A DNA stretch of 64,000 nucleotides from positions 89,350-153,349 of the forward strand of contig NZ_JAQNDN010000024.1 in assembly GCF_028369095.1 (NCBI RefSeq). The letters are read 5' to 3'. A program made the position numbers and the translations under genes. Below are positions 6,527 through 19,198 of the stretch, one piece after another. Origin of the DNA: Nannocystis radixulma. Lineage in GTDB: Bacteria > Myxococcota_A > Polyangia > Nannocystales > Nannocystaceae. Numbering within the stretch: the first letter of the stretch is position 1; each line of letters opens with the position of its first letter. The notes below the pieces were generated by a model, which saw only the letters and a program-made list of their open reading frames with translations, was not told where the DNA came from and searched no databases.

Positions 6527-7444
6527 ATGAAGGCCACGACCCGCGACGACGGCACGCAGCTCCCGCCGGAGCTTGACCTCGATCTCGTGGCCCTGGCCCG
6601 CTCGGGGCCGGGCCCGTACGACATCCAGGCGGAGCTTCCGGCGCCGTGGATGGCGACGGTGCTGGCGCACACCGACGCGGAGGTCACGAGTGCCGGATCC
6701 ACCAAGCTCGAGGTCACGCCGATCGGCGAGGGCAGCAGCTACCTGGTCCGCGGCTCGATCCAGGGCGGCTACAGCGTCCCCTGCGCCCGTTGCCTGGCGC
6801 CGGCCGCGGTCTCGGCCGGCGGCGAGATTTGTGTGCACTTCGTCCGCGATCGCGTCGGCGACGCCGACGACGAGGAGACCGAGACCGAGTCGCCCGACGA
6901 GCGCAGCTTCTCCGGCACGCGCATCGACCTGCGGCCGCTGATCACCGAGCAGGTGCTACTGTCGTATCCGATCCGGGCGCTGTGCGCGTACGGCGAGGTG
7001 TGCCGCGGCCTGTGCATGCGCTGCGGCGCCGAGCTGAACGGTCAGCCGCTGGGGCCGTGCGCGGCGTGCGGGGCGGTCGACGCCCAGGTGCCGATCGCCG
7101 CCGACGCCGACCTCGAGGAGCCGGCCAAGCCCACGAGCTCGTGGCAAGCGGCCCTGAGGCAGCTCGCCGACTCCGGCGTGGGCGATGACGACGACGGCAC
7201 CGGGGCCGACAACCTGGAGTTTGCCGGTCCTATTCCTGGCGTCGACGATTTCGATCCCGGGTTCGAGCCGGAGCCCGAGCCGATCCCCAAGTCGTCGGGC
7301 AAGCCGGCCGGGAGATCGGCGGCCAAACCGACGGCCAAGTCGGCCGCGGGCAAGCCGGCGGCCAAGTCGTCCGCCGGCAAGTCGCCCGCCGGCAAGTCGG
7401 CGAGCAAGTCGTCCAAGAAGCCTCCCAGCAAGAAGAAGCAGTGA
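6527..7444 (+). CDS. yceD: YceD/DUF177 family protein (large-subunit rRNA accumulation protein) with ~120-aa C-terminal acidic then Lys/Ala/Ser-rich tail
   Basis: Conserved position immediately upstream of rpmF-plsX-fab. DUF177 Cys pairs (CARCL...CMRCG...CAACG). C-terminus ...[35 protein letters not shown]. Confidence 0.8.
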
Positions 7445-7565
7445 TCTTCGCCTCGAGGGCTTGAGTTATCTCAGGTCCCCGGGGCGCCCTACCGCCCCCT
7501 GCGCCGATTGTGGCGCCGGGAAAAGCGCTAGACTCCCGCCCCCGCTTCCAAGGCGGTTTTGTGCC

Positions 7566-7751
7566 ATGGCTGTCCCCAAGAAGAAGAAGTCCCAGTCCCG
7601 CCGCGACATGCGGCGCGCCCACCACGACAAGCGCTCGGCGCCGACCCTCGTCGCCTGCCCGAACTGCCAGGAGCGCGTGCGTAGCCACCACGTGTGCCCG
7701 GCCTGCGGCCACTACAAGGGCCGTGAGGTGATCACGATCGCGCAAGAGTAA
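7566..7751 (+). CDS. rpmF: 50S ribosomal protein L32
   Basis: [55 protein letters not shown]. Typical L32 with CxxC..CxxC. Confidence 0.95.
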
Positions 7752-7758
7752 GTAAGAG

Positions 7759-16432: not shown

Positions 16433-17747
16433 GGCTGGCGCCACGGACATGTCCCAGGGGACACGTCCGCGGGGCCGTCGCGTCCTGCTGATCGTCAGCG
16501 GCGGGATCGCGGCCTACAAGGCGCCGGAATTGGTGCGGGCGTTCGTCGCCGCCGGCTGCGAGGTCCAGGTGGTGATGACGCCGGCCGCGGAGGCGTTCGT
16601 CAGCGCGCTGTCGCTGGCGACGGTCTCGACCCGGCCGGTGCGCACGCGCCTGCTCGACCCGGAGGAGGAGGGCCACGTCGGCCACATCGAGCTCGCCGAC
16701 TGGCCCGACCTGGTGGTCGTCGCGCCGGCCACCGCCGACCTGCTGGCGCGCGCGACCCACGGGCTGGCGAACGACCTCGCGGCGACGGTGCTGCTGGCCA
16801 CGCGCGCGCCGGTGCTGTGGGCGCCGGCGATGAACACCAACATGTGGCGCCACCCGGCCACGCAGGACAACCTGGCGACGCTGCGCGCCCGCGGGGCCGA
16901 GTTCGTCGGGCCCGATCGCGGGCAGCTGGCGTGCGGGTGGATCGGCGAGGGCCGCATGATCGATCCGCCGCTGATCGTCGCCGCCGCGCTGGCGCGGCTC
17001 GGCGTCGGCCCGGCGAGCCGCGGGCCGTGGGCCGGCAAGCGCGTGCTGGTGTCGGCCGGGCCGACGCGGACGTACATCGATCCGGTCCGCTTCGTCACCA
17101 ACGCGTCGACCGGGGCGATGGGCTTCGCGCTGGCCGACGCGGCCCAGCGCGCCGGCGCCTCGGTGACGCTCGTGGCCGGACCGGTCGAGCTGGTCACGCC
17201 GGCGGGCGTGCGCCGCGTCGACGTCGAGACCGCGGCCGAGATGCAGGCGGCGCTGGAGAACGAGCTGTCTCAAGGGCCATGTGATTGGGTGGCCATGGTG
17301 GCGGCGGTGCAGGACCTCGAGATCGACGGCGGTGCCGCGCGCAAGCTCGAGAAGGCGGAGCTGCTGGCGACGCTGCCGACGCTCGGCTGGCGGGCCGCGC
17401 CCGACATCCTCGCCGCGCTGACGGCCCGCTTCGGCCGCGGCGCGGCGCCGGGCGCCCCGCGCTCGCGCTTCCTCGGGTTCGCGGCGCAGACGGTCGAGGA
17501 TGGCCCCGAGGACAGGTTGCAGCAGGAGCTGATCCGGCTCGGCTCGGTCAAGCTGCGGGCCAAGGGCGCCGACGCGATCTTCGTCAACCGCGTCGGCGCG
17601 CCCGGGGTCGGCTTCGCGTCCGCGACCAACGCCGGCCTGTTGCTGGCGCGCGACGGCGACGCGATCGCCGTGCGCGCCTCGGGCCCGCCGATCGCCAAGG
17701 CGGCGCTGGCCGCCTGGCTGCTCGACGCGCTGGCCGCGACGAGCTGA
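16425..17747 (+). CDS. coaBC: Bifunctional phosphopantothenoylcysteine decarboxylase/phosphopantothenate-cysteine ligase CoaBC
   Basis: RVLLIVSGGIAAYKAPELVR flavoprotein domain plus C-terminal CoaB ligase domain. The likely start is ATG at 16449, inside a GGACATGTCC repeat. Confidence 0.9.
   Translation: MTEAGATDMSQGTRPRGRRVLLIVSGGIAAYKAPELVRAFVAAGCEVQVVMTPAAEAFVSALSLATVSTRPVRTRLLDPEEEGHVGHIELADWPDLVVVAPATADLLARATHGLANDLAATVLLATRAPVLWAPAMNTNMWRHPATQDNLATLRARGAEFVGPDRGQLACGWIGEGRMIDPPLIVAAALARLGVGPASRGPWAGKRVLVSAGPTRTYIDPVRFVTNASTGAMGFALADAAQRAGASVTLVAGPVELVTPAGVRRVDVETAAEMQAALENELSQGPCDWVAMVAAVQDLEIDGGAARKLEKAELLATLPTLGWRAAPDILAALTARFGRGAAPGAPRSRFLGFAAQTVEDGPEDRLQQELIRLGSVKLRAKGADAIFVNRVGAPGVGFASATNAGLLLARDGDAIAVRASGPPIAKAALAAWLLDALAATS
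16445..16468. repeat. GGACA-family palindromic repeat pair (GGACATGTCC-cagg-GGACACGTCC) at the ribBA/coaBC junction
   Basis: Read directly. The internal ATG (16449) is the likely coaBC start. Confidence 0.8.
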
Positions 17748-17761
17748 CGGAGGATCTCGCA

Positions 17762-19198
17762 GTGGAAGGCGATCGACGCGACGCGACCCGGCGGCTGGCG
17801 GTTCAGTTCGCCGCCCACCTGCGTCACCTCCGGGAGTTCCGGGGTTTGGCGTACGTGTCCGCCGCGTCCTCTCCGCGTCGCGCCGGCGCGCCGAGTTCCG
17901 CGCCCGAGGAGCGATCGCCGGCTCCGGACAGCACCTGGTCGTCCGGACAGGTGACCGATCACGCCGCCGCGGACGCGCGCACACCGACATGGCCCGAAGA
18001 CCAGGCCAGATCCGCCCGCGATTCCGGGCCGCGAGCGCGCACACAACCGGGCCCGGCGGCCTCGGGGCCGCCGCCGCAGGAGATGAAGCGAGGGCGCGCG
18101 CAGCCGGGCCCTGCGGACTGGGAGCCGTCGCAGGAGACGACACGCGGTCGCGCGCAGGCGGGCCCCGAGGACTGGGAGCCGTCGCCGCAGCCGGACCCCG
18201 GGGACTGGGAGCCGTGGCCGCCGCAGGAGACGACACGCGGGCGCGCGCAGCCGGGCTCCGGGGACTGGGAGTCGTCGCAGCAGGAGACGACACGCGGGCG
18301 CGCGCAGCGGGAGTCGCCGCCGCAGGAGCCGACGCGAGGGCGCGCCCAGCGGGGCCCTGCAGAGTGGGAGTCGTCGCCGCCGCAAGAGGCACCGCGCTCA
18401 CGCGCCGCGACCCCGCCGTCCGCGGAGCCGCCGCGCGCTCGCACGGTCAACCAGCAGCCGGCCGAGCCGTCGCCGCGACCCCGGACGGTCAGCCTGCCGC
18501 TGGCGGATCAGGGCACACCGCCGCGTGCGGCCGAGGGCGCGCCGCGCCCGGCCGGCGATGCCTCGCTGCGCACGCAGGCTCAGGCGTGGACGCCGGCGCA
18601 GAAGCTCGAGTACTTACGGGCTCGTAACGTCGGCGACTGCACCCGCTGCAAGCTCTCGAAGACCCGCACGAACATTGTATTCGGCGTCGGCGACCCCAAC
18701 GCGCGGGTGATGTTCATCGGCGAGGCGCCCGGCGCGGACGAAGATCGGCGCGGCGAGCCGTTCGTCGGCGCTGCCGGCCGGCGGCTGACACAGTGGATCG
18801 AGCGCCTGGGCATGAAGCGCGAGCAGGTCTACATCGCCAACGTGCTGAAGTGCCGGCCGCCCGGCAACCGCGAACCGGCCGCCGACGAGATCGAGAAGTG
18901 CTCGCCGTTCCTGCGCGCCCAGATCCGGGCGATCCGCCCCGCGGTGATCGTGGCGCTCGGCAGGTACGCGGGGATGTTGCTGATCGGCACCGATCAGGAT
19001 CTGAAGTTGGCACAGATGCGCAACCGTCGTTGGACCTACGACGACCCAGGTGCAGGCCTGCAGATCCCACTTCACGTCACGTATCATCCGTCGTACGTGA
19101 TCCGACGCGAGGGTGAACTCCCTCCGGGGCAGCGAAACCCGGCCGACGACACGGTGATGTCGGACCTCGAGCGAGCGCTGCGCGTGCTGCGAAGTTGA
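17762..19198 (+). CDS. Family-4 (UdgA-type, Fe-S) uracil-DNA glycosylase with long N-terminal disordered tandem-repeat extension
   Basis: C-terminal ~200 aa: [52 protein letters not shown]...HPSY. GTG at 17762 is preceded by GGAGG at 17749-17753, just after the coaBC stop. The nearest in-frame ATG is at 18083, so at least ~165 aa of repeat region is translated. Confidence 0.7.
18075..18410. repeat. Tandem ~57-bp coding repeats (protein units ..[18 protein letters not shown]..) in the udg 5' region
   Basis: Read directly. Both strands show long ORFs here purely because of the repeat. Confidence 0.7.

Follow-up and report, generated by a model that had tools for sequence, protein, structure and literature searches.

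The ribBX gene and its product

We analysed a 64,000-nucleotide stretch of DNA from Nannocystis radixulma (contig NZ_JAQNDN010000024.1), referred to below as the window, with a G+C content of ~72%. Genes between positions 6527 and 19198 were called by scanning the forward-strand open reading frames (ORFs) with NCBIfam and Pfam profiles. The order on this strand is yceD-rpmF-plsX-fabD-fabG-acpP-fabF-rpiB-nrdR-ribD-ribE-ribBX-coaBC, followed by a gene for a uracil-DNA glycosylase (UDG) and then by one for an HU/IHF-like protein (Table 1). A first-pass annotation of the same DNA had described a housekeeping super-cluster with missing members and a crippled RibA domain. The limits it gave coincide exactly with the start of yceD and the stop of the UDG gene, but rpiB was missing from its gene list. 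The main subject here is ribBX, which encodes a complete 3,4-dihydroxy-2-butanone 4-phosphate (DHBP) synthase, the RibB domain, joined in one protein to the X domain, which has the fold of GTP cyclohydrolase II (GCH II) but no zinc site.

The RibB domain matched PF00926 with 276.8 bits over profile positions 2-191 of 191, and the ribB model TIGR00506 with 232.6 bits (cutoff 177.45). Its motifs DRENEGD and GHTEG were invariant in 55 homologues, and the domain is 43-49% identical in sequence to solved RibB structures, with a root-mean-square deviation of 2-3 Å. The X domain matched PF00925 over residues 229-376 (85.6 bits) and E. coli RibA in BLASTP (E = 2e-13). All bifunctional RibBA equivalog models (NF006803, NF010626, NF006806 and others) scored below their cutoffs, with 359 versus 569, 388 versus 513 and 355 versus 764 bits; the best-scoring NCBIfam bifunctional model was of the 364-residue PRK14019 type. 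Among solved structures, the best match over the whole protein was RibBX of Acinetobacter baumannii (6mnz_A, residues 9-375, E = 1.8e-80). An AlphaFold model based on 55 homologues showed two domains, with a predicted local distance difference test score (pLDDT) of 81 and a predicted template modelling score (pTM) of 0.80, and its top folds were 4i14 and 6mnz. Using Foldseek, the model matched 4i14_B (Mycobacterium tuberculosis RibA2) with E = 1.9e-32 and a TM-score of 0.87, and its C-terminal domain matched E. coli GCH II (2bz0_A) with E = 9e-9 and a TM-score of 0.73, both scores being normalised to the target.

Individual residues were compared by BLASTP and in a MAFFT alignment of 83 sequences, in which E. 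coli RibA and the window protein were joined by 81 homologues from the loci described below. The query sequence for E. coli RibA agrees with PDB entry 2bz0_A at 196/196 residues, so the residue numbering is reliable, and the numbers C54, C65 and C67 used in the first-pass annotation hold. Both alignments agree with its observation that all three zinc-ligand Cys are lost from the RibA-like half (Table 1); the X domain contains 1 Cys in total. The segment EGRxIG...K101...Y105...Q108...D113-T114...N118...D126 has been exchanged for a shorter stretch, which is rich in Pro and resists alignment. This replaced catalytic loop (residues 313-325) is the sole segment of the model with a pLDDT <50. We take Tyr105, located in the replaced loop, to be the catalytic tyrosine of E. 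coli GCH II; Ren et al. are said to have given it this role in 2005. The window X domain keeps R49, D58, T149-N150-N151, K154 and R128, the last as the first-pass annotation had proposed to check; position 130 is Phe and not the Tyr that it had named.

All canonical RibBAs in the comparison set have C54, C65, C67, E92-G93-R94, K101, Y105, Q108, D113-T114, N118 and D126, and the full catalytic set is kept in every Desulfovibrionaceae, Planctomycetota, Verrucomicrobiota and Martelella sequence aligned. All Polyangia sequences have lost this set and keep R49 and D58; nearly all of them keep R128, T149, N150 and K or R at position 154. Having neither a zinc site nor a ring-opening loop, the X domain would be unable to open the guanine ring, and it is very probably not a GCH II. 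The suggestion in the first-pass annotation that this half is a probably inactive GCH II is consistent with the loss of the zinc ligands and of the EGRxIG...DT...N block, and with the end-to-end match to 6mnz_A. The surviving R49, R128, T149 and K154 suggest that the X domain may still contact nucleotide phosphate.

A separate case was seen in a Balneolaceae metagenome-assembled genome (locus L080, 721-1845). Its RibBA homologue, related to those of Bacteroidota, has N, S and K at the three Cys positions and keeps G97, Q108, D126, R128 and TNN. This protein could be an intermediate, or it could have approached a RibBX-like state by a further, independent path.

An error in the sequence or a frameshift at 16.1-16.3 kb, where the three codons lie, could in principle hide the Cys triad of a canonical ribBA, an explanation that the first-pass annotation had itself put forward for examination. 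The ORF is unbroken. The two other reading frames across the X domain yield stops or Arg/Ala-rich nonsense, with no HSECLTGD or RCDCG motif. The Cys-less sequence is also present in Nannocystis exedens DSM 71, whose RibBX is 95% identical, and equivalent Cys-less sequences occur in ~50 independent Polyangia assemblies. We give such an error virtually no chance.

Gene order and selection in related genomes

Synteny was determined using tblastn over 81 loci, with ~21 kb per genome, obtained from a scan in which each species was represented by a single genome. The top-ranking locus was that of N. exedens DSM 71, with the 95% amino-acid identity of RibBX noted above. The two genomes are collinear over 20 kb with ~90% nucleotide identity and ~0.2 synonymous substitutions per site (dS), so the window genome is a different Nannocystis; its species is near to N. 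exedens but not the same. The closest named RibBX protein matches were from Nannocystis or Nannocystaceae. In Nannocystaceae the 15-gene order of the window was found in 23/23 loci, the HU/IHF-like gene being the last member of the syntenic block. On an 11.1-Mb contig that encodes a RibBX of only 67% identity, genes called independently and labelled with Pfam domains stand in the same order, from a giant upstream ORF through yceD...ribBX-coaBC-UDG-HU. The arrangement is stable across genomes in which RibBX is only 62-67% identical.

The first-pass annotation had noted correctly that fabH is absent between plsX and fabD, and that the rib genes are followed by coaBC rather than by ribH-nusB. The last 4 bp of plsX are also the first 4 bp of fabD (ATGA), which leaves no space for fabH or a remnant of it. 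Since coaBC starts 16 bp past the ribBX stop, there is no ribH, nusB or remnant of either after the rib genes. Wherever a Polyangia locus extends across the plsX-fabD junction (19 Nannocystaceae and 3 Kofleriaceae), fabH is absent from it. In the Polyangia outside Nannocystaceae, among them Kofleriaceae and Haliangium, plsX-fabD without fabH is combined with ribBX-ribH-nusB. The order in Desulfovibrionaceae is plsX-fabH-fabG...glyA-ribD-ribE-ribBA-ribH-nusB, with a canonical RibBA.

Six of the Desulfovibrionaceae loci (L041, L051-L053, L056 and L060) have plsX-fabH-fabG with no fabD match, the mirror image of Polyangia, and in the same loci glyA stands before ribD where rpiB-nrdR would be. In one Kofleriaceae locus (L044) a gap of 2.25 kb between plsX and fabD was considered as a site for a divergent 3-oxoacyl-acyl carrier protein synthase III (KAS III). 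What lies there is an ORF of 308 aa (1732-2658), rich in Lys and Ala, and not a ketosynthase. The tail of this ORF, which is unrelated to YceD, resembles the YceD tail.

The arrangement is common to all of the Nannocystaceae loci, and fabH is absent across the Polyangia loci, so it is not peculiar to the window genome. The super-cluster is old; it lacks fabH throughout the Polyangia, and the exchange of ribH-nusB for coaBC-UDG-HU is Nannocystaceae-wide. What had been described as missing members is thus the gene order of a class at one junction and of a family at the other. The term 'crippled', with its implication of recent damage, does not fit either, since every Polyangia homologue fetched is Cys-less and the X domain is conserved. 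For Nannocystaceae, the ribBX-coaBC junction provides a clean synteny marker.

We also searched for the genes that are not at this locus. In the 64-kb window, tblastn with E. coli RibA, RibH, NusB, FabH and GlyA, with Polyangia RibH and NusB and with Desulfovibrio FabH found none of them, and Pfam scans of the other long window ORFs gave no fabH, ribH, nusB, glyA or stand-alone ribA. Within 10 kb of ribBX, none of ribH, nusB and ribA was present in the 23 Nannocystaceae loci. When a Polyangia RibH profile was run against a set of 5.8 billion proteins, the 120 matches listed were without exception RibH from other Polyangia, with no Nannocystis among the names. A profile search of 50%-identity representatives for a Nannocystaceae RibH, with two cluster look-ups, returned few organism names, none of them Nannocystaceae. 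RibH is too conserved to be placed in this way, as representatives from many phyla are 45-65% identical to Polyangia RibHs.

It could be argued that fabH has not just been relocated, and that fatty-acid synthesis in Polyangia starts without a FabH-type KAS III, for example by a FabY-type KAS I/II-like enzyme or by malonyl-ACP decarboxylation. The junctions without fabH are in keeping with this, and FabH had no match in the fetched flanks of ~50 Polyangia loci. In addition, a fabH mutant of Myxococcus xanthus is viable (PMC4048283). However, the evidence covers only ~21 kb per genome. Myxobacteria, with genomes of 10-11 Mb, typically have many paralogues of KAS III, which also counts against the proposal. 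We consider it unlikely, with perhaps one chance in several of being correct. Our literature search found no paper linking Nannocystis with FabH.

The ratio of nonsynonymous to synonymous substitution (dN/dS) relative to N. exedens was 0.23 in the X domain. In the RibB domain it was 0.10 in this comparison and ~0.1-0.25 across Nannocystaceae. Mean identity to the window within this family was 80% for the RibB domain and 58% for the X domain. Across 55 Nannocystaceae-type sequences, 31 X-domain positions are invariant, including the equivalents of R49, D58, G82-R83-G84, Y88, R128, T149 and K154. The X domain is under purifying selection and is not decaying.

These values bear on a second explanation, pathway decay, in which Nannocystaceae have lost ribH (and ribA), have become riboflavin auxotrophs and carry rib genes that are turning into pseudogenes. 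It would account for the absence of ribH, nusB and ribA from the window and from the surroundings of ribBX in the 23 loci. But ribD, ribE and the RibB domain are all intact, with scores that exceed curated equivalog cutoffs, the RibB domain has the low dN/dS given above, and the arrangement has stayed the same while RibBX diverged to 62-67% identity. Furthermore, nusB encodes a general transcription factor, so its absence at the locus means relocation, not loss. Decay of the pathway is very improbable.

A third explanation is that the X domain still converts GTP to the pyrimidine precursor in a reaction that does not depend on zinc, which would make a separate ribA unnecessary. The kept GTP-phosphate contacts (R49, R128, T149 and K154, plus D58), the retained GCH II fold seen in the match to 2bz0 and the purifying selection all speak for it. 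Against it, the three zinc ligands and the block of R94, K101, Y105, Q108 and D113-T114 are gone, and RibBX proteins tested so far fail to complement ribA mutants (PMC10012899). We regard this chemistry as extremely improbable.

We therefore favour the explanation, to which we give a probability of about 0.88, that the region is a vertically inherited core-metabolism cluster of Nannocystis with a RibBX, and that the 'missing' genes reflect lineage-level rearrangements. The cluster would join three ancient bacterial neighbourhoods, namely yceD-rpmF-plsX-fab, rpiB-nrdR and the rib operon. In the ancestor of Nannocystaceae, ribH-nusB would have been split from the rib genes, so that coaBC-UDG-HU now abut ribBX. 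The X domain keeps the GCH II fold and several phosphate-binding residues without the zinc site or the ring-opening loop. Beyond the gene identities, junctions, residue losses, fold, conservation and synteny shown above, we infer the following about the presumed lack of GCH II activity, about what the X domain does and about where ribA, ribH and fabH lie. As in its family, RibBX would supply only the four-carbon branch of riboflavin synthesis. By analogy with other RibBX organisms, the X domain may be structural or a regulator of the RibB domain, and a separate ribA would supply GCH II. The ribH and nusB genes and that for the enzyme of fatty-acid initiation are probably encoded elsewhere; the first-pass annotation had likewise predicted a separate ribA, a separate ribH and a KAS III or alternative initiator in other parts of the genome. 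The strong constraint on ribD, ribE and the RibB domain would be senseless in an auxotroph. The decarboxylase half of CoaBC is a flavin mononucleotide (FMN) flavoprotein (Pfam 'Flavoprotein' domain), and we conjecture that the adjacency of coaBC to the rib genes may be more than chance.

Several observations weigh against this explanation. The X domain is clearly less constrained than the RibB domain, and in more distant comparisons, where dS is near saturation, its dN/dS rises to ~0.6. A crude neighbour-joining tree built from RibB-domain sequences groups all Polyangia RibBX in one clade. Canonical enzymes separate this clade both from the Cys-less clade of alphaproteobacteria and from the RibBX of A. 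baumannii. The zinc site may thus have been lost more than once, with the loss in Polyangia being independent. If so, the properties of Shewanella and Acinetobacter RibBX need not transfer to the Polyangia proteins.

Other genes and repeat-rich stretches

The remaining features of the region are listed in Table 1. Besides the junctions described above, fabD and fabG overlap by 1 bp and nrdR and ribD by 4 bp. NrdR (205 aa) and RibE (254 aa) each extend ~55-60 residues at the C-terminus past their family profile. The start codon of the UDG gene is uncertain and could be GTG at 17951 or ATG at 18083.

Table 1. Features of the window in and around the yceD-UDG cluster
Feature	Position	Strand	Evidence and remarks
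1349-aa ORF	2365-6414	-	High G+C at third codon positions (GC3); no Pfam match; many short FPLF/PLFW-type repeats
yceD (DUF177)	6527-7444	+	Pfam PF02620, 61.8 bits, residues 74-175 of 305; long Lys/Ala/Ser/Pro-rich C-terminal tail
YceD tail	7282-7444		Repeat-encoded; tandem repeat at 7324-7414
rpmF (ribosomal protein L32)	7566-7751	+	TIGR01031, 86.8 bits vs cutoff 22.6
plsX (phosphate acyltransferase)	7759-8820	+	TIGR00182, 318 bits vs cutoff 243
fabD (malonyl-CoA:acyl carrier protein (ACP) transacylase)	8817-9800	+	TIGR00128, 317 bits vs cutoff 261
fabG (3-oxoacyl-ACP reductase)	9800-10597	+	NF009466, 262 bits vs cutoff 222; TIGR01830, 295.2 vs cutoff 297.75
acpP (ACP)	10652-10897	+	TIGR00517, 95 bits vs cutoff 70
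fabF (KAS II)	10905-12143	+	TIGR03150, 622 bits vs cutoff 494
rpiB (ribose-5-phosphate isomerase B)	12151-12591	+	NF004051, 175 bits vs cutoff 135
nrdR	12593-13210	+	TIGR00244, 137 bits vs cutoff 125, residues 1-146 of 205
ribD (deaminase/reductase)	13207-14442	+	TIGR00326, 299 bits vs cutoff 156
ribE (riboflavin synthase)	14503-15267	+	NF006767, 225 bits vs cutoff 155, residues 1-193 of 254
Short tandem repeat in the RibE extension	15144-15190
ribBX	15272-16432	+	DHBP synthase domain ~15293-15886 fused to zinc-less GCH-II-like X domain 15887-16429
Zinc-ligand positions	16085-16126	+	C54 replaced by Q272, C65 by D283, C67 by A285 (BLASTP and MAFFT)
coaBC (FMN-dependent phosphopantothenoylcysteine (PPC) decarboxylase / PPC synthetase)	16449-17747	+	TIGR00521, 325 bits vs cutoff 220
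Family-4 UDG	17951-19198	+	TIGR00758, 192 bits vs cutoff 125; catalytic domain ~18620-19198
Tandem repeats in the UDG gene	18070-18435		Periods 54-99 bp; within 17951-18620; GC3 0.93
HU/IHF-like DNA-binding protein	19414-20073	+	TIGR00988, E = 1.1e-13, below cutoff; PF00216 in the homologue at locus L001
Overlapping ORFs	20207-20833	+	Between HU-like and TetR-family genes
	20248-20802	-
Repeats of 24- and 48-bp units	20449-20615		Between HU-like and TetR-family genes

Upstream of its catalytic domain the UDG gene contains tandem repeats. The repeat stays in the UDG frame and encodes repeated units, so the protein has a long N-terminal extension of low complexity. Three stretches, namely the UDG repeat, the YceD tail and 20093-20602, could not be aligned with N. 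exedens DSM 71. The UDG repeat stretch therefore varies between species. The third gap lies by the short-unit repeats and overlapping ORFs that follow the HU-like gene. The 1349-aa ORF is directly upstream of yceD and divergent from it, and a homologue occupies the same position in 15 Nannocystaceae loci (46-90% identity). An Rfam scan of the window at gathering thresholds gave no match to an FMN riboswitch or any other RNA. A scan of 6000-20500 for promoters and terminators gave none above shuffle expectation, except for one promoter-like site before the HU-like gene.

Comparison with known systems

For annotation, the gene should be named DHBP synthase (RibBX), the name used by NCBI for Nannocystis homologues; records of the Joint Genome Institute (JGI) say 'bifunctional RibBA'. 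Beyond annotation the result has little significance. What the comparison adds is that a Cys-less RibBX is fixed in every Polyangia homologue sampled and that it appears phylogenetically separate from proteobacterial RibBX. The fixed subset of nucleotide-phosphate-binding residues in all Polyangia RibBX could guide experiments on the X domain. A more far-reaching proposal is that Polyangia, as a class, lack a zinc-dependent GCH II and/or a FabH-type KAS III genome-wide. A so far unrecognised enzyme would then catalyse the first committed step towards riboflavin or initiate fatty-acid synthesis. The conserved X domain, with its R49, D58, R128, T149 and K154, could belong to that system, or it could regulate DHBP synthase by sensing GTP or phosphate. 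We consider the proposal a long shot.

In its gene order the window cluster has 7/8 genes of the E. coli-type cluster yceD-rpmF-plsX-fabH-fabD-fabG-acpP-fabF, in the canonical order and with fabH absent. It differs also in running on into rpiB-nrdR and the rib genes, as in other former Deltaproteobacteria. The clusters of Kofleriaceae, Haliangium and other Polyangia are closer to it, with the same order from yceD to ribBX, no fabH and a Cys-less X domain, but they have ribH-nusB right after ribBX, where Nannocystaceae have coaBC-UDG-HU.

Canonical RibBAs, such as M. tuberculosis RibA2 (4I14), B. subtilis RibA and those of Desulfovibrionaceae (L041-L060), have the same two-domain fold and the same place after ribD-ribE. 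A canonical RibBA scores above the equivalog cutoff and has the complete GCH II catalytic set. The window protein, in contrast, is below every such cutoff and lacks C54, C65, C67 and the EGRxIG...Y105...DT...N block.

The window protein most resembles the RibBX proteins of Shewanella oneidensis, Aeromonas salmonicida, Bradyrhizobium ORS285 and A. baumannii (6MNZ). Like these, it consists of a DHBP synthase and a zinc-less GCH II-like domain, has a length of ~360-390 aa (canonical RibBA is longer) and is encoded in a rib operon after ribD-ribE. All of the sequence features of RibBX were found in it, namely a RibB domain, a domain homologous to GCH II and the loss of both the Cys triad and the catalytic loop. 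The RibBX fusion of A. salmonicida complements ribB and not ribA (PMC10012899), and that of A. baumannii is described in a 2025 preprint as an alternative DHBP synthase (bioRxiv 10.1101/2025.09.16.676631). In the part of PMC10012899 that cites Brutinel et al. 2013 and Nouwen et al., RibBX fusions are described as having lost the zinc-binding and ring-opening residues, as showing RibB activity only in complementation and as occurring alongside a monocistronic ribA. The window protein differs from these examples in that it comes from Myxococcota (Polyangia), whereas they are from gamma- and alphaproteobacteria, and in that coaBC, not ribH, is the next gene in Nannocystaceae. RibBX is an already published variant, the window gene belongs to it, and the first-pass observation is correct but ordinary.

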